DNA of 64,000 nt from Candidatus Ornithoclostridium excrementipullorum (GTDB lineage: Bacteria; Bacillota; Clostridia; Christensenellales; UBA3700). The stretch spans positions 15,380 to 79,379 of the forward strand of contig DVKK01000002.1 in NCBI GenBank assembly GCA_018716085.1. The letters are read 5' to 3'. The notes beneath the pieces are model-generated. The model had not been told where the DNA came from. It ran no database searches and was given only the letters and a program-made list of their open reading frames with translations. The translations under genes and the position numbers were made by a program. Of this stretch, positions 9,295-39,646 are shown one piece after another. Positions within the stretch are counted from its first letter, which is position 1, and each line of letters starts with the position of its first letter.

Positions 9295-9318
9295 AAAAAG
9301 GACGCCTCGCGGCGTCCC
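9295..9318 (-). terminator. Rho-independent terminator ending the 13-gene operon
   Basis: The reverse strand reads GGGACGCC-GCGA-GGCGTCC followed by TTTTTCGTT, 17 nt after the lipoprotein stop. Confidence 0.6.
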
Positions 9319-9335: not shown

Positions 9336-10640
9336 TCAGTCGAGCGAAGGCACCGCGATCGTTTCGTCGTCTTCGGGATATTCGATATCCATAACGATGT
9401 GCGTGCTGTCGAACACGTCGGCTTTGAGCACCAGAGTGGTGTCGACCGCATTGTTCTCGGTATAATACGGCATTATCACCTCGGTATAGAAGTCGATCTG
9501 TTCGAGCCTACCGTGTCTGTTGTTGTAATCGTAGGTATAACGCGCCGTGGTCATCGCGCCTATCGCGCTCCAATCATACGTTATGTCCTCGCCGTAATTG
9601 CTCCAATACGCGTTGCCTGCCGCAATATTGTCCGCTCTGGTCATGTGCAAACTGTCGTCGCGGTATGCGATCAGCTTGGTCTGCCAGTCCGCAAGCCACG
9701 CTTCGAGAGCGTCGAGATACGCGGGGATCGTCGTTCCCATAGCCGTCTGCCATCCCTCGGCGTCGTCCGCCGCGGGGATCTCGGGCGGCTGCGGATAATC
9801 CGCGGAAGGCTGTTCCTCGGGCAACGCGTAAACGGATCTGTACTGCGCCTGCATGACGTGCGTATATATCTTGTTCCCGTTGCTGAATCCGAGCAGGTCT
9901 TCGGAGGAGAAGCCGTCGTTCTTGACGCCGAAAGTTTCGAGCAGCGCCAGCCCGTCGGGTACTGACGCGGACTGTACGGTCTCGCCGTTGATACGGGTCT
10001 CGGTAACGCCGTTCTGCGTGCGTATCTCGGTGACGACCACGCCGTCTATCGCCGCCTTTACGGTCTGATATCTGTACTCGTTCGACTGAGATTCGGACGC
10101 CGCGGCTTCCAGTTCGGCAAGCTTTTCGGGATCGGAAAGCGCGTCGGTGAAATCCTCGTAGAAGTTTTCCCATACGGCGGGATACAGCGTATACTTGAAG
10201 TAGAAGTTATCCGAACCGTTCTGGACGTATTCGACCTCGGCATACTGATCGTACCAGCCGTTGCTCTCTCTGCCCAGCTCTTTCACGTTGCTCTGTCTTT
10301 CGGAATCTCTGCCGAACAGACCGTCGATGAAACTCTGATCTTCGTCGGCGAGAGCGTCCATCAGCGCGTTGTACATATTTTCGTACTGATCCCACCCCTT
10401 GGATTCGGAGGTGCCTCTCACCATCGCCGCGTTGAAATGTCTTTCGACCGTGAACGACGTCCTGAAATCGGCGCTGCCGAGATTTGCGTATATCTCGGAA
10501 TACTTATCGGCGAATTCCGTAACGCCTTCCTCGATCGACGCATAGAACTCCTCTTCGGTCTGGCTGCACGAAGCGAACGTGACCGCGAGTATGCATATCA
10601 TCACCGCTACGGCGGTTATCGCAATAAATCTCTTTTTCAT
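9336..10640 (-). CDS. Orphan lipoprotein, function unknown (last gene of the uronate operon)
   Basis: Track ORF 9336..10646. I prefer the ATG at 10638-10640 (MKKRFIAITAVAVMICILAVTFAS|C) because GGGGAGGA sits 7 nt upstream of it. Signal peptide and lipobox are present and the mature part is acidic. No family recognised. Confidence 0.7.
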   Translation of the reverse strand: MKKRFIAITAVAVMICILAVTFASCSQTEEEFYASIEEGVTEFADKYSEIYANLGSADFRTSFTVERHFNAAMVRGTSESKGWDQYENMYNALMDALADEDQSFIDGLFGRDSERQSNVKELGRESNGWYDQYAEVEYVQNGSDNFYFKYTLYPAVWENFYEDFTDALSDPEKLAELEAAASESQSNEYRYQTVKAAIDGVVVTEIRTQNGVTETRINGETVQSASVPDGLALLETFGVKNDGFSSEDLLGFSNGNKIYTHVMQAQYRSVYALPEEQPSADYPQPPEIPAADDAEGWQTAMGTTIPAYLDALEAWLADWQTKLIAYRDDSLHMTRADNIAAGNAYWSNYGEDITYDWSAIGAMTTARYTYDYNNRHGRLEQIDFYTEVIMPYYTENNAVDTTLVLKADVFDSTHIVMDIEYPEDDETIAVPSLD

Positions 10641-10642
10641 AT

Positions 10643-12265
10643 TCATTCCTCCCCGCCTATATGCACGGTCTCGGACGCCACGGCCTCCTTGACCTCGTTG
10701 ACTTCCTCCCCGTCGATCACGACTTTGCCGTCATCGGTGACGGGTACGGACTCGCCGTCCGCCTCTGCGGGGATACCGCCTTCGGCGGCGGATTTTTTCT
10801 CGTATTCCGCCTTTCTCTTATGCGCGAGCCTGACTTCGATCTCCGCCATCTTCTTGCCGGAGAGGTTGTAGAACAGCATCGGTACGATGGACACGAGGTT
10901 TGTTATCGCGGGTATGATCGTGAAGATCATGAATATGCCCATCTTGGTGAACTCGGTCTGCGCGGGCGTGTGGTCGTTGAGGAACGCCAGCGGCTGCGAG
11001 AACAGGAAGAACGCGAGCAGCCAGGACAGGAAATAATCCTTGAAGCCCGAAGACACCTTGCTGCGAAGGCTCATCAGCGAGAAAGTGATACCTTCCAGTC
11101 TTTCGCCCGTCTTGTCTTCCCAATAGTCGAGCGTATCGGTCGCCATAAGGTGCGGCACGACGTTGAGCACGCCGACCGGAAGCATCGCGAAGAACATCAG
11201 CGCCGCTATCAGGATGAAATTCGTACCGCCCATCAGATAGATGAAGAATATCAGCGCAAGCGCCGCGGAATGCCATATCGTCGCGAAAATGAACAGCTTC
11301 TTGGAATCCATCATGCGTTTGAGCTTGGGCGCGAACATCATACCGATCATGGACGCTATCGCTCCCGGAAGCGCAAACGCGATCTGCAGAGAGCCGTCGT
11401 TGTAGATATAAGCCACGACGTACATGATCGCCGCGCTCACCAGATTCCGGAAGAATGTCAGCAGGTTGGACAATATCAGCAGCAGGAACGGTTTGTTCTT
11501 GAACAGATATTTGAATCCTTCCAACAGGCTCGGCGTCGTTTCGGTAGGTTCGCATCTCTCCTTGACTCTCACACCGCCGAGCACCATGAACAGGGGGCCG
11601 AGTACGCCGATGACGATAGCGACCGCCATGTAGGTGTTGGTGTAGTCGTCGTTGCTTATCAACAGACCTATCGATATGAGCACGAGCGCGGACTGTTCGC
11701 CTATCGAGCCGAGGATACGGCTGACCGATATCATCTTGGATCTTTCGTCCATATTCGGCGAAGCGACCGCGGGGATACCGTCGAGCGGAACGCCCACTAT
11801 CGTACCCGTTATGTCATAGAGGATATACGTCACGTACATCCACGCTATCTTTCCTCCGCTGCTGAATCCGGTGACGGGCATGAACAGCAGTATCGTCACG
11901 ATAGCCCACGGTATCGCGCCGCCCACGAGGTACGGTCTCATTTTTCCCCAGCGGGTGCGCGTCTTATCGACTATCATACCCATGACGGGGTCGTTGAGTC
12001 CGTCGAATATCTTCGTGATGAGGAACATCACGCCGACGTCCGTCGCGGGTATACCCACGCATGCGGTATAGAAAAACAGAAGATAGCCCTGGACCAGACC
12101 CGTGACGGCGCTGCTTGCAAAACGGGCGAGCGCGAACAGTATGTAGTCCTTTTTGGTCAGGAACTTTTGGTTGATCAGCTTACTGTCTTCGGCGGCGGCG
12201 TTATCCGCTCCGCCTTCCGGCGTCAGCTGAGACAACTCTTGAGTGTTGTCGATCGTGTTTTCCAA
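10643..12265 (-). CDS. Glycoside-pentoside-hexuronide (GPH)/MFS cation symporter with an acidic C-terminal tail
   Basis: 540 aa with multiple transmembrane segments. The N-terminal pattern (KDYILFALARFASS..GLVQGYLLFFYT..D.VMGMIVDKTRTRWGKMRPY) is typical of MelB/YicJ/GusB-type GPH carriers. TTG start at 12263-12265 with GGGAGG 7 nt upstream. Confidence 0.85.
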   Translation of the reverse strand: MENTIDNTQELSQLTPEGGADNAAAEDSKLINQKFLTKKDYILFALARFASSAVTGLVQGYLLFFYTACVGIPATDVGVMFLITKIFDGLNDPVMGMIVDKTRTRWGKMRPYLVGGAIPWAIVTILLFMPVTGFSSGGKIAWMYVTYILYDITGTIVGVPLDGIPAVASPNMDERSKMISVSRILGSIGEQSALVLISIGLLISNDDYTNTYMAVAIVIGVLGPLFMVLGGVRVKERCEPTETTPSLLEGFKYLFKNKPFLLLILSNLLTFFRNLVSAAIMYVVAYIYNDGSLQIAFALPGAIASMIGMMFAPKLKRMMDSKKLFIFATIWHSAALALIFFIYLMGGTNFILIAALMFFAMLPVGVLNVVPHLMATDTLDYWEDKTGERLEGITFSLMSLRSKVSSGFKDYFLSWLLAFFLFSQPLAFLNDHTPAQTEFTKMGIFMIFTIIPAITNLVSIVPMLFYNLSGKKMAEIEVRLAHKRKAEYEKKSAAEGGIPAEADGESVPVTDDGKVVIDGEEVNEVKEAVASETVHIGGEE

Positions 12266-12318
12266 TTCATAACCTCCCGATCATCACATTCGTGATATCT
12301 GTATATAAATGACCGAAG

Positions 12319-14268: not shown

Positions 14269-15437
14269 GCCTTTTTCGCTCCGTCCTGTTTTTCTTCGGC
14301 TATCCTATTTTCGAGCTCTTCGATATACAGCTCCTCGTCGATGGGATAGACGACTTCCTTACCCGTCCAACCGGACAGGTGTATCGCGTTGGAGAAAGTG
14401 AGACCGTTCAGACCGTCCGCGTAAGGCGCGATGAGTTTGCTCTCTTTTCCGAGCACGACGTGCGAGAAATTGCGGATCACGTTGATGTGCTGCTGTTCGA
14501 TCGCGCCCTTGATCATATCGAAAAGACCGAGCTTGTACTTGTACGTCTTGTTCGGGATCTTACCCATGAATACCTTGTTCTCGGCGGAAAACTTCGGCTC
14601 GGGCGTAGCGTTCTCGACGAAAGTGAGCTTCATCGTTATATCGCTGTTTCCCTCTATTATGAGTTTGCCTCCGTCGCCCGTTATCTCAAGACGGTTGGTG
14701 CCCGGCGCGTCGTGAGTGGACGTAATGAAAACGCCTTCCGCGCCGCCTTCGAATTCGCAGACCGCGGTGACATCGTTTTCCACGTTTATCTTTCTTCCGA
14801 CAGTCTTGCATACGCTCCATACCCTCTTTACGGGTCTGCCCGCAAGCCATGTGAAAAGATCGAGCTGATGCGGATCCTGATTGATCAGCACTCCGCCGCC
14901 TTCTCCCGCCCAGGTGCCTCTCCATCCGCCCTGGTCGTAATACGCCTGCGGTCTGTACCAGTTGGTTATTATCCAGACGATACGTTTGAGCTGTCCCAAT
15001 CTTCCGGAGTCTATGATCTCCTTGGCCTTTACGTATACCTTGTTTGTGCGCTGATTGTACAGTATGCCGAATTTGAGTTCGGGCTTGGTCGCGCCGAATT
15101 CCGCCGCTTCGCGGACCGCCTTGGTATATACCCCCGCGGGCTTGTCGCACAGCACGTGCAGTCCCGCGGACAGAGCCTCCTTCGCTATTCCCGGATGCGC
15201 GTAATGCGGAGTGTCGATTATCACCGCGTCGATGAGCCCGCTCGCGAACATATCCGCGCGGTCGGAGAATACCTTTACGCCTTCGAGATTGCTCTCCGCC
15301 CACTTTCTGCGCCCCTCGTCGATATCGCACACCGCGGTGAGCACGCCGTTTTTGTCCATGCCCTTTTTGAGCCTTTTGGCGTAGTTGCTGCCCTGTTTGC
15401 CTATGCCGACTATTCCGTACCTTACCTTGTCCATCAC
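14265..15437 (-). CDS. Gfo/Idh/MocA family NAD(P)-dependent oxidoreductase (copy 1)
   Basis: 390 aa. Rossmann start YGIVGIGKQG, then EKP-type LCDKP and the NQRTN...WYRPQAYYD..WRGTW.GEGGG.LINQ.PHQLDL block. ATGA overlaps on both sides. Confidence 0.85.
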   Translation of the reverse strand: MMDKVRYGIVGIGKQGSNYAKRLKKGMDKNGVLTAVCDIDEGRRKWAESNLEGVKVFSDRADMFASGLIDAVIIDTPHYAHPGIAKEALSAGLHVLCDKPAGVYTKAVREAAEFGATKPELKFGILYNQRTNKVYVKAKEIIDSGRLGQLKRIVWIITNWYRPQAYYDQGGWRGTWAGEGGGVLINQDPHQLDLFTWLAGRPVKRVWSVCKTVGRKINVENDVTAVCEFEGGAEGVFITSTHDAPGTNRLEITGDGGKLIIEGNSDITMKLTFVENATPEPKFSAENKVFMGKIPNKTYKYKLGLFDMIKGAIEQQHINVIRNFSHVVLGKESKLIAPYADGLNGLTFSNAIHLSGWTGKEVVYPIDEELYIEELENRIAEEKQDGAKKA

Positions 15438-16381
15438 GCGTTCTCCTTTTCGACTTGTTCTATGATATCTTTAAGTCCGCGGTACTGCCAGGTGAAAATG
15501 TCCTTGCGCGAAACTTTCTGCATCGGAGCTATGCCCTTCGCCGCGTCTATGCGCTTGAATATCTTGTTCCAGCTGCCGACGTAAGGGAGCATCCACGTAA
15601 ACCATCCGAATACGTGGAACAGCACTTTGTGATCGGCGTATTTGCCCGTATGCGGTTCAAGCGTCATGAATCCGTCGTAATGTCTGTTGACGATAAGGTC
15701 GCGGAGCATCTCCTTGTAGCCGCCCAGGCCCAGACCGACGGGCACTTCCACCTTCTCGGGCGAGCAGTCCTTGATGTGGTAATAGACGACGTAATCTTTG
15801 AGCATCTGATACGCTTTGGGGGCGTTGACTCCGCATTGGATAAAGTTGGACGCGTCGTACGCCAGTTTGAACTGCGGATCGTTCATCTCCGTATAGAGTT
15901 GCAGACATCTCTCGGGCGTGTCCCCGTAGATCCTCTTTTCGTTTTCGTGAAGGAGTATCACGTCCGTTCCCTTTACCTTATCGAGGAAACCGCGCAGTTT
16001 TTTCACGACTTCGGGGAAATATTTTCCGTAATCCCCGCCCTGCTTGACTCTGAACGAAAACATCCTTATGTATTTGCAGTCCGTGAGCTTGCAGATCTTG
16101 ACCAGTTCTTCCAGTTTCGCAAGCTGCGCCTCGTACGCGGCGTCGTCGTACAGTCCTATCTTGCCGATCGGGGAGCCTATCGAAGAAAACTTTATCCCCG
16201 CGGCGTCCAGCCTGGGCTTTATGTTCGCCGCGAATTCCTCCGCCGTATAGTCGGCGATATTCTTGCCGTCCACCACACGGGGACACATATAGCTCTCGCC
16301 GAATTCTTTTATCAGCGCGATCTGATCGTCCAGTTTCGAGCTGACCTCGTCGTAAAATCCGGATATCTTTATTTCGGACAT
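15434..16381 (-). CDS. Sugar phosphate isomerase/epimerase (xylose-isomerase-like TIM barrel)
   Basis: Track ORF 15434..16390 (GTG) trimmed to the ATG at 16379-16381, which has GGAGAGGTGGAG upstream. The sequence shows the AP-endonuclease-2/xylose-isomerase-like pattern (..LLHENE.., ..YYHIKD.., ..LEPH..). Confidence 0.8.
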   Translation of the reverse strand: MSEIKISGFYDEVSSKLDDQIALIKEFGESYMCPRVVDGKNIADYTAEEFAANIKPRLDAAGIKFSSIGSPIGKIGLYDDAAYEAQLAKLEELVKICKLTDCKYIRMFSFRVKQGGDYGKYFPEVVKKLRGFLDKVKGTDVILLHENEKRIYGDTPERCLQLYTEMNDPQFKLAYDASNFIQCGVNAPKAYQMLKDYVVYYHIKDCSPEKVEVPVGLGLGGYKEMLRDLIVNRHYDGFMTLEPHTGKYADHKVLFHVFGWFTWMLPYVGSWNKIFKRIDAAKGIAPMQKVSRKDIFTWQYRGLKDIIEQVEKENA

Positions 16382-16399
16382 TTTCTCCACCTCTCCGCT

Positions 16400-17548
16400 T
16401 TATTTTCCGGTATGCCTACCGTTTGTTTCCTCTTCTATCTTCCCGCGCAGCATTGCCGAATACTCGGCTCCGTCGACGGGGAGAGCGACCTCGGCGCGCT
16501 TCCACGCCGACATATTCATCGCGTTGATCAGTTCGAGCGCGTATATCCCCTCTTCTCCGCGGGCTACCAGTACCGACGGATCGCGTCCGTTGACCGCCTC
16601 GGCGAAACGCTCCAACACCCTGCATTGCTGCCCGAAACGCCAGTCGTAAAGATAATTGCCTATCCCGTAGAATTTGCGTTCGGTACGGTATTTTTTATCC
16701 TCTTTGTTGCCGTAATCGCGCCGCGACCTGCCGTTTATCTCGCTCTCGTCCATGCGCAGCAGTTTCACGGTCATCGACTTTTTGTTCACCGTGAGGCTGC
16801 CCTTGGAACCTGCGATCTCGAGCCTGTTCACCCCCGGGATCTCGTGAGTGGACGCGCGGAACACACAGTCGAAATCTCCGTAATTCATGACGGCGGTGAC
16901 GTCGTTTTCGGTCGTGATGTTTCTGCCCTCGGTCCTGCTCCTGCACAGTACGGACCCGGGCATACCGAGTATCCACTGCAACAGATCGAGCTGATGCACG
17001 CATTGATTGATGAGCGTGCCTCCGCCCTCTCCCGACCAACTGGCGCGCCAATCGTTCATATCGTAGTAAAACTGCGATCGGTACCAATCGGTAACGGTAA
17101 AATCGGCTCGCTGTATTTTGCCCAATCTCCCGCTTCCGACGAGTTCTCGCGCATAGGCGTACATCGGATTGGTCCTTTGATTGTACATTATCGCAAAGAT
17201 CGCGTCGCTGTGTCTGCCGGCGACCTCGATAAGTCTTCTCGCGGCGTCGGCTTCCACGGCGATCGGCTTTTCGACCAGAACGTGTATCCCGTGTTCCAAG
17301 GCAAACGCGCATATCTCTTCGTGAGAATAATGCGGCGTTGCGACGACCACGGCCTCCGCCGCTCCGTCCTCTATCAGCTTGCGATAGTCGGAATATCCTT
17401 TTACTCCGTATTTCTCCGCGGCGGCGCGCGTCACGTTCGCGTCGAGGTCGCATACCGCCGTAAGCTCCGCGCCCTTTACCGCGCCGGAAGCGAGATTGTC
17501 GGCATGTCTGCCGCCCATTCTTCCTATGCCTATGACCGCCGTCTTCAT
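16400..17548 (-). CDS. Gfo/Idh/MocA family oxidoreductase (copy 2, paralogue of copy 1)
   Basis: Track ORF 16400..17701 trimmed to MKTAVIGIGRMGGRH (ATG 17546-17548, ATGA overlap with the upstream stop). It shares the NQRTN..WYRSQFYYD..WRASWSGEGGGTLINQCVHQLDL block with copy 1. Confidence 0.85.
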   Translation of the reverse strand: MKTAVIGIGRMGGRHADNLASGAVKGAELTAVCDLDANVTRAAAEKYGVKGYSDYRKLIEDGAAEAVVVATPHYSHEEICAFALEHGIHVLVEKPIAVEADAARRLIEVAGRHSDAIFAIMYNQRTNPMYAYARELVGSGRLGKIQRADFTVTDWYRSQFYYDMNDWRASWSGEGGGTLINQCVHQLDLLQWILGMPGSVLCRSRTEGRNITTENDVTAVMNYGDFDCVFRASTHEIPGVNRLEIAGSKGSLTVNKKSMTVKLLRMDESEINGRSRRDYGNKEDKKYRTERKFYGIGNYLYDWRFGQQCRVLERFAEAVNGRDPSVLVARGEEGIYALELINAMNMSAWKRAEVALPVDGAEYSAMLRGKIEEETNGRHTGK

Positions 17549-18192
17549 ATCTTCTCTCCGCCGCCGTGTCTGAACCTTATCGCAGACGCGACTATCGGGA
17601 TGTTGGTCGTCACGTTGGCGACCTCCCAATCGAGGAACCTCGTAAGCTGCTTGTATGTGTCCACCGTGAACACCGACAGCTTTACGCCGTGTTCCCTGCA
17701 CGCGGCGAGAAAATCGTCGCTTGCCTTATGCTTGTTTATATTCAGTCCCGCAAAGTGCGGGTTGCCCGTCTCTTCGAGTTTTTGTTTGATCTTCTCTACG
17801 TTCTTCGCCTTGTAAGGCAGTCCCTTGATCCTGTTGAGCCACGCCTGTCCGCAGGTCAGTTCGGCGCTGTCTTCCAACCGCACCGCACCTGTGAATATCA
17901 GACTGTCTTCCGCGCCGAGGCTTTGCGCGAGTTCGATGACTTCACGGACAAGTCCCCGCATTTTCAGATCGCAGTTGATCTTCATCCCCTTGTTTTTCAC
18001 GAGCATGAACGCCTCTGCGAGGGTTATTTTCCTGCGGTACAGGAACAACGAAGGCAAGTGGCTCAGGTACAGCACGCCTCCGCGCTTGTACACGTCCACT
18101 TCTATGGCGTCGGCATTGTATGCGCTCACGTTGTCGAAATACATGCGCGAGTTCCTGCCTGTCCCGAGTGCCCCTCCGTGCGCCGTTATCAT
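17545..18192 (-). CDS. Glycerophosphodiester phosphodiesterase (GDPD)-like protein
   Basis: 215 aa. The N-terminus MITAHGGALGTGRNS...AIEVDV fits the GDPD/PI-PLC-X-like AHRG..ENT...E.DV pattern. GGAGG RBS present. Confidence 0.6.
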   Translation of the reverse strand: MITAHGGALGTGRNSRMYFDNVSAYNADAIEVDVYKRGGVLYLSHLPSLFLYRRKITLAEAFMLVKNKGMKINCDLKMRGLVREVIELAQSLGAEDSLIFTGAVRLEDSAELTCGQAWLNRIKGLPYKAKNVEKIKQKLEETGNPHFAGLNINKHKASDDFLAACREHGVKLSVFTVDTYKQLTRFLDWEVANVTTNIPIVASAIRFRHGGGEKI

Positions 18193-18214
18193 TTTACCTC
18201 CGCAGCCGTAGCTC

Positions 18215-19492
18215 CTATCTCTCTATATCGGGTATCTCCGACATATCGACCTTTTCGCCTCCTCGGCGCCGCGACAGTTCCGCCGCGGTGACGATCCTGT
18301 GACTTTCCACCGTTTCCGATATCCAGGTGTACTGACCTTTCGGATCGAGCTCTCCTTTGAGCATATCGACGGTCGCCTTGGTGACACCCTCGTCGCCGCC
18401 GTAATGCCCCTTTATCACCGGTATGATATTGACTATTATCTTTTTCTTCTTTTTGTCGAACAGCCTAAGCTCTATCACGCTGCCGGTATCGTCAGCTATG
18501 AGTTCGCCTTTCGTGCCGCGTATCTCCGTATGGCGGTGATCCTTCTCGTTGAACGCATTGGCGGTCATCACTATGCGGACGCCGTTCTCCATCTCCATGT
18601 TGACGGTCTGGCAGTCCACGACGTCGTTGTCGCATCCGAACACGCAGCGCGACCAGAGTCTGCCGCGTTCGCCGTTCTTCAACGCGTCGATAACGTCGGC
18701 TTTCTTCGGACTGACGCTGAACGCGTACGTGCCCCACGGGAATTTGTTCTTCTTACAGCCTCTGCCTACGTACTGATAGGTGCATTCGTAGATGCACTCG
18801 TCTTTGTACTTGCAGTCGAAACAGCTGTCCGCCGCCCCTTCGGGAGCGTTGTCCGAGTTGAAGAAACTCAAACTGCCGTAAGACGACAGGCTCTTGCACT
18901 TCGCCCCTGCGAACCAATAGAGCAGATCCATATCGTGACAGCATTTTGCGAGCAGCATCGGGGACGTATCCTCTTCTCTGCGCCAGTTGCCCCTCACGTA
19001 ACTGTGGCAGAAGTGCCACCACGAGATATGTTCGTCGTGCTTTATCAGCTTTACGTCGCCCAGCACGCCGGAATCGAGCAATTCCTTTATCTTTCTGTAA
19101 TAGTTCGCGTAACGCAACACGTGGCATACCAGGACCTTCCTGTTGTGTTCGCGCGCGTATTTTTCTATTTCAAGACACTCCGCGATGTTCGGACTGACGG
19201 GTTTTTCGAGAAGCAGATCGTATCCGAGCCCGAGCGCTTTCATCGCGTGTCCGTAATGGTCCTTATCCTGCGTCGCTATGACCATTATGTCGGCGACTTT
19301 GCCCTGCGCGAAAAACGCGTCCTCGTCCGTGAAACAGGCTTTGTCGTCAAGCTTCCACGCAGACTTCACGTTGTCGATCTTCGCCTGATACTTGTCGCAG
19401 ACGGACGTTATCTTCACGTCCGGCATCGCGTTGAGATGTCCGCCGTAATTGCGGCCTCTCGAACCCAGACCTATCACCGCTACCGTGTACAT
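18215..19492 (-). CDS. Gfo/Idh/MocA family oxidoreductase (copy 3) with a cysteine-rich insertion
   Basis: 425 aa. Rossmann start VAVIGLGSRG, LLEKP, then an insert with C-x2-C-x5-C-x3-C plus four more Cys (residues ~224-294). Confidence 0.8.
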   Translation of the reverse strand: MYTVAVIGLGSRGRNYGGHLNAMPDVKITSVCDKYQAKIDNVKSAWKLDDKACFTDEDAFFAQGKVADIMVIATQDKDHYGHAMKALGLGYDLLLEKPVSPNIAECLEIEKYAREHNRKVLVCHVLRYANYYRKIKELLDSGVLGDVKLIKHDEHISWWHFCHSYVRGNWRREEDTSPMLLAKCCHDMDLLYWFAGAKCKSLSSYGSLSFFNSDNAPEGAADSCFDCKYKDECIYECTYQYVGRGCKKNKFPWGTYAFSVSPKKADVIDALKNGERGRLWSRCVFGCDNDVVDCQTVNMEMENGVRIVMTANAFNEKDHRHTEIRGTKGELIADDTGSVIELRLFDKKKKKIIVNIIPVIKGHYGGDEGVTKATVDMLKGELDPKGQYTWISETVESHRIVTAAELSRRRGGEKVDMSEIPDIER

Positions 19493-19502
19493 ACAGCCTC
19501 CG

Positions 19503-20336
19503 TCAAACTCCCGAATACGCCGAGAACCCGCCGTCGATCGGCACGACGATACCGGTCACGAAACCCGCCTTCGTGTCGTCGGTCAGCCACGTCAGCGTGC
19601 CGAGTATCTCTTCCGGTTCGCCGAAACGCCCCATCGGCGTGCTGGCGAGTATCTTCTTCGACCTCTCCGTGGGAGCCCCGTTCTCGTCGAAGAGCAGACC
19701 GTAATTCTGCTTGGTGACGAAAAATCCGGGAGCGATGGCGTTGACCCTGATGCCCTCTTTCGCAAAGTGGACCGCAAGCCATTCGGTGAAATTGCTCACC
19801 GACGCCTTGGCGCCGCTGTATGCGGGTATCCTGGTCAGAGGTCTGAACGCATTCATCGAAGAGACGTTTATTATATTGCCTCCTCTGCCGACCATATCTT
19901 TGGCAAAGACCTGAGTGGTCAGGAAGGTCGCAAGGAAGTTGAGTTTGAATACGAAATCCACCCCGTTTCCGTCGAGATCGAAAAAGCTCTTGACGTCGGG
20001 ATCCTTCATATCCGCTTCGCTGAAATAATCGTGACTGGTCGTTCCCTTGGGATTGTTGCCTCCCGCGCCGTTGATCAGTATGTCGGTATGTCCCAGCTCG
20101 GCATTGATCGAGCTCTTCGCCTTCTCCATGCTTTCCTTTTCCAGACAGTTGACGGCATACGCCTTCGCGACGCCCCCTTCCGCGACTATCTCGTCCGCGA
20201 CCTTCTGCGCCGCGGCGAGATTGAGATCGAGCACGGCAACCTTCGCTCCGAGCTTCGCATACTCTTTCGCCATCATGCTGCACAGGACTCCGCCCGCGCC
20301 GGTTATCACGACTACCTTGTCTTTGTAAACGTTCAT
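19503..20336 (-). CDS. Short-chain dehydrogenase/reductase, UxuB-like (fructuronate/D-mannonate oxidoreductase type)
   Basis: Track ORF trimmed to MNVYKDKVVVITGAGGVLC (GGGGAGGAG RBS). TGxxxGxG, NGAGGN and SDR catalytic-region pattern. It sits directly downstream of uxuA, as in Firmicute hexuronate clusters. Confidence 0.75.
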   Translation of the reverse strand: MNVYKDKVVVITGAGGVLCSMMAKEYAKLGAKVAVLDLNLAAAQKVADEIVAEGGVAKAYAVNCLEKESMEKAKSSINAELGHTDILINGAGGNNPKGTTSHDYFSEADMKDPDVKSFFDLDGNGVDFVFKLNFLATFLTTQVFAKDMVGRGGNIINVSSMNAFRPLTRIPAYSGAKASVSNFTEWLAVHFAKEGIRVNAIAPGFFVTKQNYGLLFDENGAPTERSKKILASTPMGRFGEPEEILGTLTWLTDDTKAGFVTGIVVPIDGGFSAYSGV

Positions 20337-20366
20337 TTTCTCCTCCCCGTGTTTATATCCACGCAA

Positions 20367-21431
20367 TTATACGGTTTTGACGTATTCGCCGCGGGCCTTG
20401 CCCACAGCCTCTATGATCCCGTCCAGATACATCGCGCCGAGCGCGCGGTCATACAGTCCGTATCCCGCTCTTCCCGTCTCGCCCCAGATCATTCTGCCGT
20501 GATCGGGTCTGACGTATCCGTCGAACTTTGCGTCGTAAAGCGCGCTTACTATCTCGTACATATCCAGACTTCCCCTGTCGGATATGTGTCCGCTCTCTTC
20601 GAAACAGCGGTCGCCCGTGATCTTCACGTTGCGCAGATGCGCGAACGCTATCCTGTCGCCGCATTTCCTTATCATTGCCGGCAGGTCGTTGGCGGGATCG
20701 ACTCCCAGCGAACCGGTGCAGAAAGTAACGCCGTTGGCGGGGCTGTCGACGATCGAGAACATCCGCTCGAAACTCGCCGCGCCGGTGATTATCCTCGGCA
20801 GACCGAATATGCCCCACGGCGGGTCGTCGGGGTGGATCGCCATCCTTACGCCGCACTCCTCAGCTACGGGCACGACTTCTTTGAGGAACGTCGCGAAATT
20901 CGCCCACAGTTTTTCCTCGTCAACGCCCGCGTATCTTCCGAGCAGTTCTTTGAGCCCGTCTTTGGTATAACTCTCGTCCCAGCCCGGCAGACTGAGTTCG
21001 CTTTTGAGCGGATCGAGCGACAACACCGTATCGCGGTCGTAAGCCAGGGCGTTGGATCCGTCGGCAAGCTGTTTGGAAAGGTCGCTGCGCAGCCAGTCGA
21101 ATACCGGCATGAAGTTGTAGCAAATGCACTTTACGCCCGCCTTGCCCAATCTTCTCACGTTTTCCTTGTAGTTGTCTATCAGCCTTTCCGCGTCGGGACC
21201 GCCGAGCTTGATCTCCTCGTGTACGGGCACGCTCTCGACCACTTCGAAAGCGAGTCCTTTCGCTTCGGCGAGCTTCTTGATCCTGCCTATGCTCTCCTCG
21301 CTCCACACCTCTCCGACGGGAGTGTCGTAGACGGCGGACACTATGCCCGTCATGCACGGGATCTGTCTTATGGCGTCGAGGGTCGTCTTGTCGTCCTCTC
21401 CGTACCATCTGAACGTCATCTTAAAAGCCAT
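20367..21431 (-). CDS. uxuA: Mannonate dehydratase
   Basis: 354 aa. The start [21 protein letters not shown] and overall pattern are characteristic of UxuA. Confidence 0.9.
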
Positions 21432-22802
21432 TTATTTCTCCTCCGTAAGCTCTGCGGCATTGCCGTAGCACAGTCTGTACGCGACTTCCGCCGCACGATC
21501 CTTATCTCCGCGGGCACGGTCGGCAAGCCAGTTGCAGACGATCTGTCTGTAATAGTCGTGGCGCGTGTACGACAGGAAACTGCGGCTGTCCGTCAGCATC
21601 CCGACGATCGAACAGATATGTCCGAGTTCTCCCACGGTATCCAAAGTCTCCCTCATTCCACGCTCGTGATCGCAGAACCACCAGCTTATCCCGATATGCA
21701 CTCTTCTGAACGCGCCCGCAAGCGTGGTCAGCGGATAATACGCCGTCGGATTGAGAGAATATATTATCGTTTCGGGCAGCGCGCCCGCATTGTTCATCGC
21801 GTCGAGCATGGCGCGTACGCTCGCGGTCGGTACCGGATCCGCCACACAGTCGAATCCGCCGTCCGCGCCTTTTTCGGCGAACATACGGGAGTTGCAGTTG
21901 CGCGCTACGGACAGGTGCAGCTGCATCACCATGCCTCGTTCGGCATATTCCCTCGCAAGGAACAGATATACCGCCCCTTTGAACGCGTCGACGTCCTCCG
22001 CGCTCACGCGCTTCCCGTTTATTATATCCGAATATATACGCGCCGCCGCCTCGTCGTCGGCTATCGCGGAAGGGAAACCTTCGACGCCCACGTCGGAGAA
22101 CTTACATCCCCGCGAAACGAACAGGTCCAACCTCGCGCGCACGGCGGCTTTGAAGCCGTCGAAAGTGTCTGCCGAAACTCCCGCTGCCGACGCCAGACGG
22201 GCGACGTACGCGGCATAATCGGGTTTGTCCGCCGAGACCAGTCTGTCCGTACGGAACGACGGGACCACCTTTATGCCGAACGACTTATCCGCGGCGATCA
22301 GATCGTGCCAGTGCAGGTCGTCGCAGGGATCGTCCGTGGTGGCGACGTATTTTACGCCCGCCGCTTCCATGAGTTTGCGCGGCGACATGGCGTTTTCGGC
22401 GATCGCGGCGTTGGCTTTGTCCCATATCCGATCCGCGGTCTCTCGGTTGAGAGGTTCGTCTATACCGAAGAAAAACCCGAGTTCGGACTGCACCCAATCC
22501 TTGATCGGATTGCCGAAAGCGTAACCTACCGTCTCCGCAAAAGCGCGGAAGCGGCTCTTCATGTCGGCGCTTCCCGTGACGAGCTCTTCGTCTACGCCGA
22601 AGCCTCTCTCCAATCTCCATTTATAGTGATCGCCGAGCAGCCATATCTCTCCGATATTGCCGAACGGCCTGTCCTCGTATATCTCCTCGGGAGAGAGGTG
22701 ACAGTGATAGTCTATGATCGGAAGATCCCTGACCTCGCGGTACAATTCCTCCGCCTCGGGACTGCGGATAAGGCGCACCGTTTTATCTCTGTACCCGACC
22801 AC
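21432..22802 (-). CDS. uxaC: Glucuronate isomerase
   Basis: 456 aa. LPIIDYHCHLSPEEIYED is the hallmark UxaC N-terminus. GTG start with GGAGGAG 6 nt upstream, located inside the 3' end of kdgK. Confidence 0.9.
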   Translation of the reverse strand: MVGYRDKTVRLIRSPEAEELYREVRDLPIIDYHCHLSPEEIYEDRPFGNIGEIWLLGDHYKWRLERGFGVDEELVTGSADMKSRFRAFAETVGYAFGNPIKDWVQSELGFFFGIDEPLNRETADRIWDKANAAIAENAMSPRKLMEAAGVKYVATTDDPCDDLHWHDLIAADKSFGIKVVPSFRTDRLVSADKPDYAAYVARLASAAGVSADTFDGFKAAVRARLDLFVSRGCKFSDVGVEGFPSAIADDEAAARIYSDIINGKRVSAEDVDAFKGAVYLFLAREYAERGMVMQLHLSVARNCNSRMFAEKGADGGFDCVADPVPTASVRAMLDAMNNAGALPETIIYSLNPTAYYPLTTLAGAFRRVHIGISWWFCDHERGMRETLDTVGELGHICSIVGMLTDSRSFLSYTRHDYYRQIVCNWLADRARGDKDRAAEVAYRLCYGNAAELTEEK

Positions 22803-23805
22803 TTCCGTCTCCTCCCATGAGTTTCTCGACTTCCGATGCCGAAACGGCGTTGAAATCGCCCTCTATCGTATGTTTGAGGCACGAAGCCGCGACCGCGAAT
22901 TCGAGCGCGTACCTCTCGCCTTTTCCGCTGCGCAGTCCGTGGATAAGTCCCGCTCCGAAGCTGTCGCCTCCGCCCACTCTGTCTATGATGCTGACGTCGT
23001 AACGTTTGCTTTCGTAGACCGCGTCCGCCGTCACGTACAGCGCCGACCAACCGTTGCGGTTGGCGCTGTAACTCTCGCGCAGAGTAAACGCCGCGCCTTT
23101 CAGTCGCGGGAACGCTTTCAGCAGCTTGCGTCCTATCTGAACGTATCCGTCTTTGGACAGACTTCCGTCCTTTATACTGCTGCCCTCGGCCTCGATCCCG
23201 AACACGTCTTTGCAGTCTTCCTCGTTGCTGATGAGCACGTCCACCTTTTTCACGAGCTCGCTCATCACTTCGCCCGCCTTTTGCTTGCTCCAGAGTTTTT
23301 TGCGGAAATTGAGATCGCACGACACGGTAACGCCGCGTCTTTCCGCCTCCGCGAGCAAAGCCGCGGTCATATCCGCCGCACGGTCGGATATCGCGGGCGT
23401 GATCCCCGTCCAATGGAACCAGTCCGCCCCTTCCATGACCGCCGCCGCGTCGTAGTCTTCGGGAGCGATCTCGCTTATCGCGCTGTGCGCGCGGTCATAT
23501 ATGACCTGTGACGGTCTTTGCGAAAATCCCTTTTCGCAGAAATAGATACCCATCCTGTCGCCGCCGCGTACGATCTTGCTCACTCCGACGCCGTAACCGC
23601 GCAGCGTGTTCACGCACGCGTCCGCCACGGGATTGAGGGGCAGTTTCGTGAAAAATTCGGCCTCGTCGCCAAGCTGCGCCAAAGATACAGCCACGTTCGC
23701 CTCTCCGCCTCCGTAAACGGCTTCGTAACAGTCTGTCTGAACTATGCGTTTGTACCCGGGCGGTTGGAGCCTCAGCATTATTTCTCCCGCAGTGAGTACG
23801 CTCAT
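22783..23805 (-). CDS. kdgK: 2-dehydro-3-deoxygluconokinase (PfkB family)
   Basis: Track ORF 22783..23946 trimmed to MSVLTAGEIMLRLQPPGY...GGGEANVAVSLAQLG (ATG 23803-23805, ATGA overlap with the eda stop). C-terminal DRVGGGDSF motif. Confidence 0.85.
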   Translation of the reverse strand: MSVLTAGEIMLRLQPPGYKRIVQTDCYEAVYGGGEANVAVSLAQLGDEAEFFTKLPLNPVADACVNTLRGYGVGVSKIVRGGDRMGIYFCEKGFSQRPSQVIYDRAHSAISEIAPEDYDAAAVMEGADWFHWTGITPAISDRAADMTAALLAEAERRGVTVSCDLNFRKKLWSKQKAGEVMSELVKKVDVLISNEEDCKDVFGIEAEGSSIKDGSLSKDGYVQIGRKLLKAFPRLKGAAFTLRESYSANRNGWSALYVTADAVYESKRYDVSIIDRVGGGDSFGAGLIHGLRSGKGERYALEFAVAASCLKHTIEGDFNAVSASEVEKLMGGDGSGRVQR

Positions 23806-24452
23806 GCTCTGCCTCCGTTCTTTATCGCGGCGATCTTCGCCGTCAGTTCGCGCGCGGTCTTTTCCACCGCGGCATAATCTCCGGTATTCGCTCCCTTGGT
23901 GAGGAAACTTCCCGCGCCGACCGCGAAAGCTCCCGCCTTGAACCAATCCCCCACATTATCGAGGTTGACTCCTCCGGTAGGCATTATCTCGAGTTGAGGC
24001 AGAGGACCTTTGAGCGCTTTCAGCCCCTTGGGCCCCGCTACGTCGCCGGGGAACAGTTTGACCACTCTCACGCCCAATTCGAGCGCCTTTACCGCCTCGG
24101 TAGGGCTGAACACTCCGGGAACGACGGCAACCGCATATCTGTTGCACAGTCTGACGGTCTCTTCCGACAAAGCGGGAGAAAACACGAACTGCGCGCCCGC
24201 AAGTATCGCCGCTCGCGCCGTTTCGGGGTCGAGCACGCTGCCCGCGCCTATTATCGCTCCGCTCGGGTAACGCTTCGTCAACTCCGCGATGAGTCTGTCT
24301 GCTCCGGGCACGGTAAACGTCACCTCGATAAGTCCGATCCCTCCGGCGATGCAGGCGTCGGCGGTAGCCAACGCTTTCTCGAAGCCGTCTCCTCTTATCA
24401 CGGCGACGACTCCCGTTTGCTTCATTGCGGCGTAAACTTGCTCTCTGTTCAT
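23802..24452 (-). CDS. eda: KDPG / KHG aldolase
   Basis: Track ORF 23802..24566 trimmed to MNREQVYAAMKQTGVVAVIRG (ATG 24450-24452). IEVTF, the GAG.V and KLFP lysine regions, and PTGGV are typical of Eda. Confidence 0.85.
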   Translation of the reverse strand: MNREQVYAAMKQTGVVAVIRGDGFEKALATADACIAGGIGLIEVTFTVPGADRLIAELTKRYPSGAIIGAGSVLDPETARAAILAGAQFVFSPALSEETVRLCNRYAVAVVPGVFSPTEAVKALELGVRVVKLFPGDVAGPKGLKALKGPLPQLEIMPTGGVNLDNVGDWFKAGAFAVGAGSFLTKGANTGDYAAVEKTARELTAKIAAIKNGGRA

Positions 24453-24510
24453 ATCTTTCCTTGTCTTCTCCCCGAACGCGCCGGAGGCGCATCCTTTCGT
24501 TGCCTTTCTT

Positions 24511-24539
24511 ATTATAAAATAGCGCGAGAAAAAATTCAA
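24511..24539 (-). promoter_or_regulatory. Candidate sigma-A promoter of the eda...lipoprotein operon
   Basis: The reverse strand reads TTGAAT-17 nt-TATAAT, about 55 nt upstream of the eda ATG. It is back-to-back with the araC-family promoter. Confidence 0.5.
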
Positions 24540-24559
24540 GTAATAAGATCCGAAAATTA

Positions 24560-24588
24560 TGGACAAAACGGTTGAGCTCTGCTATAAT
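24560..24588 (+). promoter_or_regulatory. Candidate sigma-A promoter of the AraC-family regulator
   Basis: TGGACA-17 nt-TATAAT, 20 nt upstream of the ATG at 24609. Confidence 0.45.
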
Positions 24589-24608: not shown

Positions 24609-25376
24609 ATGCCAATCATAAACTATATCGGAAAAAACATGAAGACGTACAACGTCTCGCGTCATCAGCACGATTATTGGGAGATCATCTATTGCACTAA
24701 CGGGGACGGCAGGATAGAGTTTTTCGACGGCAACGCGCCGATAGCGTATTCGCGCAACCAGATAGTCATCATCCCGCCGCATACTCTTCACTCCAACACG
24801 TCGGAATCGGGTTTCCGCAACATCTATCTTACGGTCGCCAACTGGACTCCGTCATTCAAAAAAGCGGTGCTTCTGTCCGACAATCCGCAGAAAGACATAT
24901 ACAATGTGCTCAACCTCTGTTACCGTTATTTCAACACGGACACGGGAAATCAGGCCAATATCATCATGTCTTTCACAGAGCTCATCATAAACATACTGTC
25001 CGCATTTGCGGGCACGAACAACTGCTCGCGGCACGTCGAGATAATCGCCTCGGCGATAGTGGAAAACTTCTCCGATCCGTCCTTTTCGCTCGAAGACGTG
25101 TATGCGGAATTCCCGCTGAGCAAGGACTATATACGCCGCCAGTTCATAAAGGAGAAGGGGATATCCCCGCTCCAATTCCTCAACGTGACGCGGATAGGCT
25201 TTGCCCAAAAGCTGTTGCTGAGCAAAAACGTGAACAATTATAAGATATACGAGATCGCGGAAATGTGCGGATTTTCGGATCAACTGTATTTCTCCCGCGT
25301 ATTCAAAAAGATCACGGGAGTCAGCCCGAAAGAATACACCTCCATCCCGAAGAGCGAAAAATACAACAGCGACTGA
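24609..25376 (+). CDS. AraC family transcriptional regulator (cupin sensor plus HTH)
   Basis: 255 aa. N-terminal cupin-like H.HDYWEIIY...IIPPHTLH. The C-terminal dual HTH with ..FSDQLYFSRVFKK.TG.SPKEY is the AraC signature. Divergent from the eda operon. Confidence 0.85.
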   Translation: MPIINYIGKNMKTYNVSRHQHDYWEIIYCTNGDGRIEFFDGNAPIAYSRNQIVIIPPHTLHSNTSESGFRNIYLTVANWTPSFKKAVLLSDNPQKDIYNVLNLCYRYFNTDTGNQANIIMSFTELIINILSAFAGTNNCSRHVEIIASAIVENFSDPSFSLEDVYAEFPLSKDYIRRQFIKEKGISPLQFLNVTRIGFAQKLLLSKNVNNYKIYEIAEMCGFSDQLYFSRVFKKITGVSPKEYTSIPKSEKYNSD

Positions 25377-25435: not shown

Positions 25436-25924
25436 CTACATATTTTCGTGATCGTAAATGTTGTCGACCGCGGTGACCAGCGCTACCAGAAACGCCGCGT
25501 CCCTGTCTTCGTACGCGGTAAGCGTGAACCCGTCGCGCAGCGTGACCAGATGCTGTTTTATCTCTCCGATAGGCTTGCCCGCCTTTATCACCTCGTATTC
25601 GCGGTTTATTATATCGCCCTTTACTTCCAGATCGCCGTCGGGACTCTCCACGGTAAATCTGTCCCCGAAAAATTTCAGCCTCCGCCTTACGAAAGCGACG
25701 ACGTTGCCCTGCGGATCGCGGATATAACATTTCCCGAAGAAGAGCGTGAACGCCTTGTTTATCACTACGTAAAGTTCTTTGCCGTCGAGCGTCTGCACGC
25801 TTTTCTTTCTGCCCCAGGACAAGACCTTGCCCTGCACCACAAAGCGCGGCTGCCCGTTTTCGTCCTTGACCTGCGAACTGCCCCTCAAAGAAAAGAAATT
25901 GTTCTTGAACACCAATCTTATCAT
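25436..25924 (-). CDS. LURP-one-related / DUF567 (tubby C-terminal-like) family protein
   Basis: 162 aa. The pattern FSLRGSS.V.DENG...F.V.GK..S...K..L.D..G.EL...N.K....... and the size fit the LOR/DUF567 family. Confidence 0.65.
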   Translation of the reverse strand: MIRLVFKNNFFSLRGSSQVKDENGQPRFVVQGKVLSWGRKKSVQTLDGKELYVVINKAFTLFFGKCYIRDPQGNVVAFVRRRLKFFGDRFTVESPDGDLEVKGDIINREYEVIKAGKPIGEIKQHLVTLRDGFTLTAYEDRDAAFLVALVTAVDNIYDHENM

Positions 25925-29643: not shown

Positions 29644-29710
29644 CACGCTCCGCAGGCGCTTCCCGTCATTACTCGCACCGTTTCGTCCATATTTTAGCGT
29701 TTGCGTGGAG

Positions 29711-39471: not shown

Positions 39472-39574
39472 ACCTACGATCTCCGCCGATAACGTCTTTT
39501 CGGCACGAATTATAGCATATTTCGTCGAACAACGCAACCGAGGCGGAGCGCTCCGACAAAATAGCTCATTGATG

Positions 39575-39603
39575 TTGAAAATGCGCGCGCGTTATGTTAT
39601 AAT
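39575..39603 (+). promoter_or_regulatory. Candidate sigma-A promoter of lacZ (GH2)
   Basis: TTGAAA-17 nt-TATAAT, about 45 nt upstream of the ATG. Confidence 0.5.
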
Positions 39604-39646
39604 TATTAAAATGGCAAATCGGCGCAAACGCCGCAAGGAGAGAATT

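Follow-up and report, generated by a model that had tools for sequence, protein, structure and literature searches.

A proposed regulated operon for uptake, oxidative cleavage and catabolism of a glucuronide in a Christensenellales bacterium

The 64,000-nucleotide (nt) stretch of DNA analysed here, referred to below as the window, comes from the uncultured gut bacterium Candidatus Ornithoclostridium excrementipullorum (contig DVKK01000002.1, positions 15,380 to 79,379), and it carries a 13-gene operon which raises the question of how glucuronate is supplied to a complete glucuronate pathway by an operon in which no familiar glucuronidase is encoded. The five promoter-proximal genes specify the pathway itself, and the eight distal genes specify three Gfo/Idh/MocA oxidoreductases (Gfo3, Gfo2 and Gfo1 in order of transcription), a small GDPD-like protein, a xylose-isomerase-like TIM barrel, a protein with an (alpha/alpha)6 barrel (AA6), a GPH-family symporter and a lipoprotein. 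Pfam detects no GH2, GH88, GH105 or lyase domain among the 13 operon proteins, as had been claimed in an earlier reading of the sequence (the original prediction), whose calls of three Gfo/Idh/MocA proteins, a TIM barrel, a GPH symporter and an (alpha/alpha)6 protein are likewise borne out by Pfam and NCBIfam. The release of aglycones from glucuronides by bacteria, including those of drugs, hormones, bile pigments and plant conjugates, is usually credited to GH2 beta-glucuronidases (GUS), and these are the enzymes which inhibitors target.

The answer which is judged probable in the present work is that the operon would be a regulated uptake-cleavage-catabolism unit for a glucuronide, from which glucuronate would be freed by oxidation and elimination of the kind catalysed by the P2B11 enzymes of a human gut fosmid. 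The evidence consists of homology to the P2B11 enzymes, the invariance of their active-site residues in a large set of orthologues, and the repeated linkage of the redox genes to uronate catabolism.

The redox module and the uronate pathway

The P2B11 system was found through a thioglycoside screen of a human gut fosmid library, and it is encoded on a Collinsella-like Gram-positive fosmid in the order Iso1-Oxido1-Oxido2-Iso2 (Nasseri et al., 10.1101/2024.03.25.586180; Nature 2024). Its enzymes cleave alpha- and beta-glucuronides in vitro at similar rates by way of a 3-keto intermediate, become more active with Mn2+ and Co2+, and retain their NAD in bound form; the mechanism comprises oxidation at C3, 1,2-elimination by a TIM-barrel lyase, hydration and re-reduction, and according to the supplement Oxido1 with at least one Iso protein suffices for activity (10.1101/2024.03.25.586180). 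The authors report that the fosmid has no transporter or regulator nearby.

The four P2B11 protein sequences, taken from that supplement, were compared with the window. Gfo1 is the closest homologue of Oxido1, with which it shares 44.8% identity (E = 1e-109), and in a PDB sequence search it matches entry 8TDI, “P2B11 Glucuronide-3-dehydrogenase”, over its full length (E = 1.6e-98, 333 bits). Gfo2 matches the same entry at E = 1.6e-73 (251 bits) and is 37.3% identical to Oxido1 (E = 6e-84) and 33% identical to Oxido2 (E = 7e-27). Without exception, 35 Gfo1 and 44 Gfo2 orthologues keep the Oxido1 pocket residues N147, W179, R181, Y185, N205 and H209, and the EKP lysine is invariant in both sets as well. 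The TIM barrel shares 42.6% identity with Iso1 (E = 1e-60) and conserves the metal-binding residues H148/E149/E151, D179, H205/D208 and E245/H247; its nearest solved structure is AsbF, a Mn-dependent 3-dehydroshikimate dehydratase which acts on a 3-keto ring acid. It is presumed to be a metal-dependent 3-keto-glucuronide 1,2-lyase, an assignment which rests on the Iso1 sequence in the supplement because PDB searches with the TIM barrel, both as a single sequence and as a profile, detected no lyase of the 2024 study.

The two systems therefore have in common an Oxido1-type dehydrogenase, of which the window has two with the same active-site residues, an Iso1-type TIM barrel, the expected chemistry, and a cytoplasmic location in a Gram-positive cell. 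They differ in gene order (Gfo2-TIM-Gfo1 in the window), in host class (Clostridia of the order Christensenellales in place of a Collinsella-like organism), and in composition, since the window has neither Iso2 nor a true Oxido2 orthologue and instead has two Oxido1-type paralogues, which lie in an operon that has a regulator, a GPH carrier and a full Ashwell pathway as well as Gfo3, GDPD-like and GH94-like enzymes and a lipoprotein. The AL/BT (BT2156-2159) 3-keto-glycoside pathway of Alistipes and Bacteroides (10.1101/2024.03.25.586180) follows the same logic of oxidation, elimination and hydration with a Gfo/Idh/MocA dehydrogenase and a TIM-barrel lyase, but it works in the periplasm on glucosides, with a DUF1080 protein as lyase/hydratase, and the window proteins score 34-60 bits against the BT_2158 and BT_2159 models, whose cut-offs are 650-750.

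The five promoter-proximal genes, in which the original prediction had recognized the textbook glucuronate route, all pass or closely match curated models. Besides the matches in Table 1, Eda scores 265.7 bits against NCBIfam PRK06552 (cut-off 238), and KdgK is matched best, at 505 bits, by the kinase half of a fusion model of a sugar kinase with the aldolase for 2-keto-4-hydroxyglutarate (KHG) and 2-dehydro-3-deoxy-6-phosphogluconate (KDPG), and scores 241 bits against the model for kinases of 2-dehydro-3-deoxygluconate (KDG) and KDGal. The Ashwell (isomerase) hexuronate set of UxaC, fructuronate reductase, UxuA, KDG kinase and KDPG aldolase is complete. By established biochemistry, UxaC would convert glucuronate to fructuronate, UxuB would reduce this to mannonate, UxuA would dehydrate mannonate to KDG, KdgK would phosphorylate KDG to KDPG, and Eda would split KDPG into pyruvate and glyceraldehyde-3-phosphate.

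The proposed route upstream of these reactions would begin with the import of a small anionic glycoside by the GPH symporter, perhaps helped by the coupled lipoprotein. To judge from their folds and conserved residues, AA6 would remove a further glycosyl residue by hydrolysis or phosphorolysis, and the GDPD-like protein a phosphodiester-linked group. By homology to the characterized system, Gfo1 and Gfo2 with bound NAD+ would oxidize C3 of the glucuronide, the TIM barrel would eliminate the aglycone across C1-C2, the resulting enone would be hydrated, and the NADH form of a dehydrogenase would reduce 3-keto-glucuronate back to glucuronate. Because cleavage would proceed by oxidation and elimination, either anomer could be cleaved without a Koshland glycosidase.

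The GDPD-like family was aligned and one genome per species was scanned, which yielded 70 loci (given L numbers here) in metagenome-assembled genomes of uncultured Christensenellales and Clostridia whose titles point to gut or faecal sources (chicken, mouse, goat, termite). The full order AraC-Eda KdgK UxaC UxuA UxuB Gfo3 (DUF147 PHP) GDPD Gfo2 TIM Gfo1 AA6 GPH, in which the bracketed pair is described below, is found in 27 of these loci, with the window proteins mapping at 50-90% identity, and in five further loci the operon is cut by contig ends. By this comparison, the conservation of gene order in 27 species genomes, which extends down to about 50-65% amino-acid identity, is more than chance; a neighbourhood search of this kind had been called for by the original prediction, and it places the distal families together with the uronate genes in those 27 loci. 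A second scan, in which metagenomes were searched with the TIM/Iso1 alignment, found many Collinsella-type Iso1-Oxido1-Oxido2-Iso2 clusters, several with UxaC directly downstream, and also a contig of 35% GC (L096; the window has ~55% GC) with the genes Eda KdgK UxaC UxuA UxuB Gfo2 TIM Gfo1 and an Iso2-like gene. At least three lineages thus show a tie between the redox module and hexuronate catabolism, and this supports the view that the module yields glucuronate.

The P2B11 homology, the invariant sites and the uronate-linked synteny together support the original prediction that a glycoside containing glucuronic acid is taken up and its glucuronate released by a non-classical mechanism. Its description of the distal genes as an uncharacterized front end does not hold for three of the eight, Gfo1, Gfo2 and the TIM barrel, whose pathway was published in 2024. 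The original prediction had named prior characterization of the same gene set as grounds for refuting it, and such characterization covers the redox core without extending to the rest of the set. Literature searches revealed no characterized pathway with this gene set beyond the 2024 paper.

The transcription unit and its control

The open reading frame listing and its translations place 13 consecutive, tightly packed coding sequences on the minus strand between 9336 and 24452 (Table 1), and a codon-usage score trained on the window selects the same 13 frames. When starts supported by a ribosome-binding site (RBS) are used, the 12 junctions measure, in transcription order, -4, -20, 0, +30, +10, +22, -4, +9, -4, -4, +53 and -4 nt. 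These starts reproduce the architecture given in the original prediction as regards the 13 minus-strand coding sequences, the extremes of a 20-nt overlap and a 53-nt gap, the abutment of uxaC and uxuA with 0 nt between them, and the 20-nt overlap of kdgK and uxaC, in which the GTG start of uxaC lies inside kdgK, 3' of a GGAGGAG RBS. Two details are amended: the 4-nt overlaps which had been listed as ATGA-type are present, but the one at TIM/Gfo1 is GTGA (or TGATG), and the list omits the GPH/lipoprotein junction, which also overlaps by 4 nt. The start of Eda is corrected to 24452.

Table 1. Coordinates in the window of the operon genes, their control elements and neighbouring genes (aa, amino acids)
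Feature	Coordinates	Strand	Basis
Intrinsic terminator	9295..9318	-	GGGACGCC-GCGA-GGCGUCC then UUUUUCGUU
Lipoprotein, 436 aa, lipobox FASC	9336..10646	-	4-nt overlap with GPH gene, translationally coupled
GPH-family cation symporter, 540 aa, TTG start	10643..12265	-	TIGR00792, 275.8 bits (cut-off 231)
AA6, N-terminal beta-sandwich and (alpha/alpha)6 barrel, 649 aa	12319..14268	-	Pfam and model
Gfo1, Gfo/Idh/MocA, closest Oxido1 homologue, 390 aa	14265..15437	-	Full-length match to PDB 8TDI
Xylose-isomerase-like TIM barrel, Iso1 homologue	15434..16390	-	Sequence match to Iso1
Gfo2, P2B11-Oxido1-type glycoside (glucuronide) 3-dehydrogenase, 382 aa	16400..17548	-	8TDI match
Mini-GDPD, phosphodiesterase-like, 215 aa, no signal peptide	17545..18192	-	GDPD residue set and model
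Gfo3, Gfo/Idh/MocA oxidoreductase, 425 aa, Cys-rich insert	18215..19492	-	Pfam
UxuB, SDR-type D-mannonate oxidoreductase (fructuronate reductase)	19503..20336	-	NCBIfam PRK08277, 418 bits (cut-off 281)
UxuA, mannonate dehydratase, 354 aa	20367..21431	-	TIGR00695, 398 bits (cut-off 199)
UxaC, glucuronate isomerase, 456 aa, GTG start	21432..22802	-	NCBIfam equivalog, 496 bits (cut-off 387)
KdgK, PfkB-family 2-dehydro-3-deoxygluconokinase, 340 aa	22783..23805	-	Pfam PfkB; 4-nt overlap with eda
Eda, KDPG/KHG aldolase, 216 aa	23802..24452	-	Pfam Aldolase, 153.6 bits
Operon promoter, TTGAAT-17-TATAAT	24511..24539	-	Promoter scan, direct reading, conservation
Conserved box CGTTTTGTCCATAATTT	24554..24570	-	14 nt upstream of operon -35 hexamer
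AraC-family regulator, divergent	24609..25376	+	Pfam: N-terminal cupin/AraC_binding, C-terminal HTH_18
GH95 fucosidase-type	2668..5337	-	
P-type heavy-metal ATPase, C-terminal HMA domains	6526..9060	-	
Small gene between araC and GH38	25436..25924	-	
Small gene between araC and GH38	26077..26511	-	
GH38 alpha-mannosidase	26636..29578	-	
Lipoprotein, 339 aa, lipobox LFVSC, no Pfam family	29784..30803	+	
LacZ-type GH2	39431..42685	+	
SpoIVA	47259..48737	-	
[FeFe]-hydrogenase large subunit	50322..51776	-	

Since the genes are packed with overlaps, behind one footprinted promoter and ahead of one strong terminator, the 13 genes are predicted to form a single transcription unit, co-transcription being inferred from these three features. 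It is extremely unlikely that there are two transcription units, one of the five pathway genes and one of the eight distal genes, which are merely adjacent. A 10-nt gap between uxuB and Gfo3 and some weak promoter-like matches inside the region could be taken to favour such a division, but these matches are no commoner than in shuffled sequence (11 in the operon region compared to 9.0 +/- 3.1, no excess), the junctions range only from -20 to +53 nt with no internal hairpins, and the gene order is kept across wide divergence. Folding of the two largest internal gaps gave no structure comparable to the terminator, and Rfam has no match to any family, leader or riboswitch, anywhere in the window.

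The promoter proposed in the original prediction is confirmed by scanning, by direct reading and, with more weight, by aligning the sequences between araC and eda in 12 related genomes, where the -35 (CTTGAA) and extended -10 (TATTTTATAATA) elements are invariant and the spacer and 5' untranslated region diverge freely. The linkage of the operon to a divergent AraC-family gene is confirmed as well, and the regulator occupies the same position in all full-operon loci at 57-90% identity. Between the two genes lies a conserved box whose core, TTTTGTCCATAA, is invariant in the 12 genomes and which overlaps the -35 element (TGGACA) of the divergent araC promoter, TGGACA-17-TATAAT at 24560-24588 (+); on the evidence of this conservation and position the box is a candidate AraC operator. 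At the other end of the operon, the clean terminator of the original prediction stands, with a hairpin energy of -27.4 kcal/mol, a z-score of -5.28 and a U-run on its 3' side.

A second copy of the box, CGTTTCGTCCATATTTT, occurs with 2 mismatches at 29679-29695 (+), for which the chance expectation is 0.09. It lies 16 nt upstream of a TTGACA-17-TATAAT promoter (~29712-29740, +) which precedes the lipoprotein gene divergent from the GH38 alpha-mannosidase gene (Table 1); from its sequence, this site may share an AraC regulon with the operon. Comparison of that lipoprotein with the operon lipoprotein revealed no similarity.

Very long frames run antisense to the operon genes, among them 19449-22820 (+) and 15455-17815 (+), and encode up to 1123 aa. 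Their codon-usage scores are low, and they are by-products of composition, not genes. Choosing the longest open reading frame in related GC-rich loci selected such antisense frames, and one candidate obtained in this way, “X329”, was rejected as the antisense shadow of a PfkB gene; gene calls were accordingly used for those loci in place of longest frames.

Uptake, accessory enzymes and the likely substrate

The operon lipoprotein matches no family in Pfam or NCBIfam, and the original prediction had called it an orphan. This proves incorrect: ~25 related loci have, after the GPH gene, a lipoprotein whose C-terminal region is homologous, and the family comprises 22 representative clusters only among 1.84 billion proteins, so that on sequence grounds the protein is a member of a small, fast-evolving family. 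By established knowledge, the uidRABC (gus) and Ashwell genes of E. coli resemble the window operon in combining GPH-family glucuronide uptake with the same pathway; the window operon differs in having no GH2 beta-glucuronidase, in its SDR-type UxuB, and in placing uptake, cleavage and pathway in one AraC-type operon instead of under TetR/GntR-type regulators.

Gfo3 is only 25% identical to Oxido1 (E = 9e-11), and of the six Oxido1 site residues it lacks three (N147V, R181F, N205A), with the replacements invariant in 37 orthologues. It belongs to a large clostridial family of 5933 unnamed homologues, and gene neighbourhoods proved uninformative as to its function, with homologues of 42-46% identity found in unrelated contexts, for example beside housekeeping genes, or beside a sugar ABC transporter and a molybdopterin oxidoreductase. 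The mini-GDPD scores 22.4 bits against Pfam GDPD (PF03009), under the cut-off of 23.6, in a match confined to its C-terminal 53 residues. Its residues H5, R13, E31, D33, H45, N73, D75 and K77, which make up the GDPD catalytic and metal-binding set, are nonetheless invariant or nearly so in 37 sequences, and its AlphaFold2 (AF2) model, with a mean predicted local distance difference test (pLDDT) of 96, has GDPDs as its best Foldseek matches (TM 0.71-0.78). By alignment and model, this cytoplasmic protein is a complete GDPD in compact form.

A gene for a PHP-domain protein (CehA/McbA metallohydrolase type, 172 bits) directly precedes the GDPD gene in 62 of the 70 genomes, and in 59 of those a 147-aa protein with no Pfam family (DUF147) is also present. 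The DUF147-PHP pair is absent between Gfo3 and GDPD in the window and in its four closest relatives (L001, L002, L003 and L006); comparison of the 22-nt gap at 18193-18214 with positions 8611-10004 of L079 shows what looks like a recent loss in the window's clade. Elsewhere the DUF147-PHP-GDPD triad accompanies a PfkB kinase, MFS_2 carriers or a GH20 enzyme. A reduced variant, seen at 7251-13693 of L071 and also in L053-L069 (Stercoripulliclostridium-type), consists of a GH20 hexosaminidase, a 149-aa protein, PHP, a GDPD-like protein, a Gfo2-like protein and AA6, without the TIM-barrel lyase, transporter or uronate genes, and it is flanked by genes for very large surface proteins. The acc operon of Agrobacterium, cited here as an analogy only, degrades sugar-phosphodiester opines with the GDPD-type AccF and the phosphatase AccG, and it resembles the present loci in joining a GDPD-family enzyme, and in the relatives an adjacent metallohydrolase, to an importer in a sugar-catabolic operon. 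The comparison is one of gene content, and the partner here is of the PHP/CehA-McbA type with a 147-aa protein and not an IMPase.

AA6 is the most constant partner of the GDPD-like gene or triad (47/70 loci). It matches the Pfam families GDE_C (32.6 bits, cut-off 21) and, marginally, GH94 (28.0 bits, cut-off 27), and the top Foldseek matches of its AF2 model (pLDDT 87.9) are GH94 phosphorylases at TM 0.71-0.75, followed by GH116, GH63 and GDE. A profile of the family detects chitobiose phosphorylase (ChBP) at E = 1e-6, with R308 aligned to R349; the invariant RRDWCDN motif is aligned with RADWND of ChBP, which places D424 on the catalytic Asp492. AA6 shares the architecture of the GH94 cellobiose, chitobiose and cellobionic-acid phosphorylases, with aligned YRD and (R)DWxD motifs, but it is only 11-16% identical to them and ~150 residues shorter than the matched chains of ~800 residues. 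From these alignments and the model, it may be a GH94-like glycoside hydrolase or phosphorylase. The cellobionic-acid phosphorylase of GH94 holds an acidic sugar in its +1 subsite.

Several findings weigh against the reading of the operon as a glucuronide-cleaving unit, or at least against a simple form of it. Identity to the characterized P2B11 proteins is 37-45%, so substrate specificity could differ, and P2B11 itself slowly cleaves 6-phospho-, 6-sulfo- and sulfoquinovosides (10.1101/2024.03.25.586180). The glucuronide-transporter equivalog gives the GPH protein 185 bits (cut-off 528), and the protein falls below the cut-offs of the YagG and MelB equivalogs too. Searches of the window with Iso2 (blastp and tblastn) revealed no homologue, and Pfam found no DUF1080 domain in the operon proteins, so that the hydration step has no assigned enzyme. 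Gfo3, the GDPD-like protein, AA6 and the lipoprotein are conserved yet are not needed for the cleavage of a simple glucuronide. Finally, some relatives carry GDPD, AA6 and Gfo3 without uronate genes and beside inositol genes. In L031 (79-7159), IolB-IolD-IolA-IolG run into Gfo3-DUF147-PHP-GDPD-TIM-AA6-MFS-lipoprotein, and Gfo1, Gfo2 and the uronate genes are absent; in L079 (1-1338), IolA and a true IolG (463 bits, cut-off 355) abut the full operon; and in L026, L038, L039 and L048, too, GDPD-like genes have iol genes in their vicinity.

These inositol neighbours could mean that the distal genes are a module for inositol or its glycosides, with the Gfo proteins as inositol dehydrogenases, the TIM barrel as an enzyme of the IolE/IolI type, and the uronate genes merely co-housed. 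The best NCBIfam match of all three Gfo proteins is indeed inositol 2-dehydrogenase, but their IolG-model scores are 69-119 bits against the cut-off of 355, and Gfo1 and Gfo2 fit glucuronide-3-dehydrogenase far better with all site residues kept; the TIM barrel, so similar to Iso1, matches IolI at E = 0.19 only; tblastn with the L031 proteins found no IolB, IolD, IolA or IolG orthologue in the window; and the presence of UxaC in every full operon implies an aldouronate intermediate. The chance that this explanation is correct is slim. A Thermotoga-type oxygen-free route from inositol to uronate was also considered and rejected: it needs UxaB and UxaA, and 0/13 operon proteins match those families. 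That route ends in tagaturonate, and the conservation of UxaC points to a glucuronate rather than a tagaturonate route.

The remaining alternatives keep the uronate pathway and reassign the enzymes which feed it, or keep the redox chemistry and change its substrate. AA6 has the fold of a glycosidase or phosphorylase with a conserved acid residue, belongs near a family which can bind an acidic sugar, and is so constantly linked to the GDPD-like gene that it could be a new classical glucuronidase or phosphorylase which frees glucuronate, leaving the Gfo proteins and the TIM barrel to act on the aglycone or on another sugar. This is improbable: AA6 also occurs in loci without any uronate genes (those of the L031 and L053-L069 types), in L096 the uronate pathway is coupled to Gfo2-TIM-Gfo1 in the absence of AA6, and it is Gfo1, Gfo2 and the TIM barrel which are specifically homologous to a glucuronide-cleaving system. 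An equally small probability is given to the idea that the redox module serves some other glycoside with an anionic group at position 6 (a sulfoquinovoside, a 6-phospho- or 6-sulfo-glucoside or a 6-phosphodiester sugar) and that the uronate genes serve separately imported hexuronates. The slow side activities of P2B11 are compatible with such a role, as is the embedding in the module of a phosphodiesterase and, in relatives, a PHP metallohydrolase; against it, three separate lineages show linkage of the module to UxaC, UxuA and UxuB, the window contains no sulfoglycolysis genes, and the operon has a single transporter.

Glucuronide cleavage through a 3-keto intermediate is therefore retained as the preferred interpretation, with a qualification as to the substrate. 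The extra enzymes, which exist also outside uronate contexts, suggest a substrate with a further glycosyl residue and a phosphodiester, and since iol genes stand beside the module in several relatives, the natural substrate is probably a glucuronide with further decoration, which may include phosphate or inositol. Of the simplest reading in the original prediction, the glucuronide is kept, but in view of the conserved DUF147-PHP-GDPD triad and AA6 the substrate is probably not a plain one. A more specific proposal, considered unlikely, is that the ancestral operon was a dedicated route for glycosyl-glucuronosyl-inositol(-phosphate) head groups. The operon meant here comprises the uronate pathway, Gfo3, DUF147-PHP-GDPD, Gfo2-TIM-Gfo1, the GH94-like enzyme, GPH and the lipoprotein, often beside iol genes, and head groups of this kind derive from plant and fungal glycosyl-inositol-phosphoryl-ceramides or from similar inositol-phosphate glycans. 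Under this proposal, removal of the outer sugar would fall to the (alpha/alpha)6 enzyme, and removal of the phosphodiester and afterwards of the phosphate to GDPD and PHP. Cleavage of the alpha-GlcA-(1->2)-inositol bond between glucuronic acid (GlcA) and inositol would be the task of the 3-keto redox module, and glucuronate and inositol would enter the adjacent pathways. We know of no described glycosidase for this bond, and literature searches returned nothing on degradation of glycosyl-inositol-phosphoryl-ceramides by gut bacteria. If the proposal is true, a GPH carrier working with a dedicated lipoprotein would be a related novelty.

Neighbouring genes and significance

Other genes in the window (Table 1) include three glycosidases of families GH38, GH95 and GH2, the last being the only GH2 protein in the window; all three look cytoplasmic and none is a GUS-type glucuronidase. 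The GH38 gene stays beside araC in L002, L003 and L006, and of the two small genes in the interval between them, one is LURP-one-related (LOR, PF04525) and the other encodes 144 aa without a family. The heavy-metal ATPase gene directly downstream of the operon terminator keeps its position in the closest relatives and has its own promoter-like site at 9145-9117, a near-consensus TTGACA-17-TATCAT with a TG extension. SpoIVA and the [FeFe]-hydrogenase point to an anaerobe which forms spores and produces hydrogen, as would fit the Christensenellales.

The oxidation-elimination chemistry and the core enzymes have been known since 2024. What is new is a gene set without Iso2 and with two Oxido1-type paralogues, found in Clostridia of the order Christensenellales, and as far as literature searches show, this is the first description of the module in a complete operon with a carrier, a regulator, a downstream pathway and four conserved extra genes. 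It was not until 2024 that the GUS-independent oxidative route was demonstrated in vitro, from a fosmid without a reported transporter, regulator or downstream pathway, and the operon supplies a physiological setting for it in the form of a regulated uptake-cleavage-catabolism unit which is conserved across many species of Christensenellales, an order of bacteria living in the gut. The operon also offers a possible inducer system by which the natural substrate could be sought, and its conserved extras, namely the mini-GDPD with its PHP and 147-aa partners, the GH94-like enzyme and Gfo3, suggest that an unrecognized class of decorated glucuronides serves as a nutrient in the gut.

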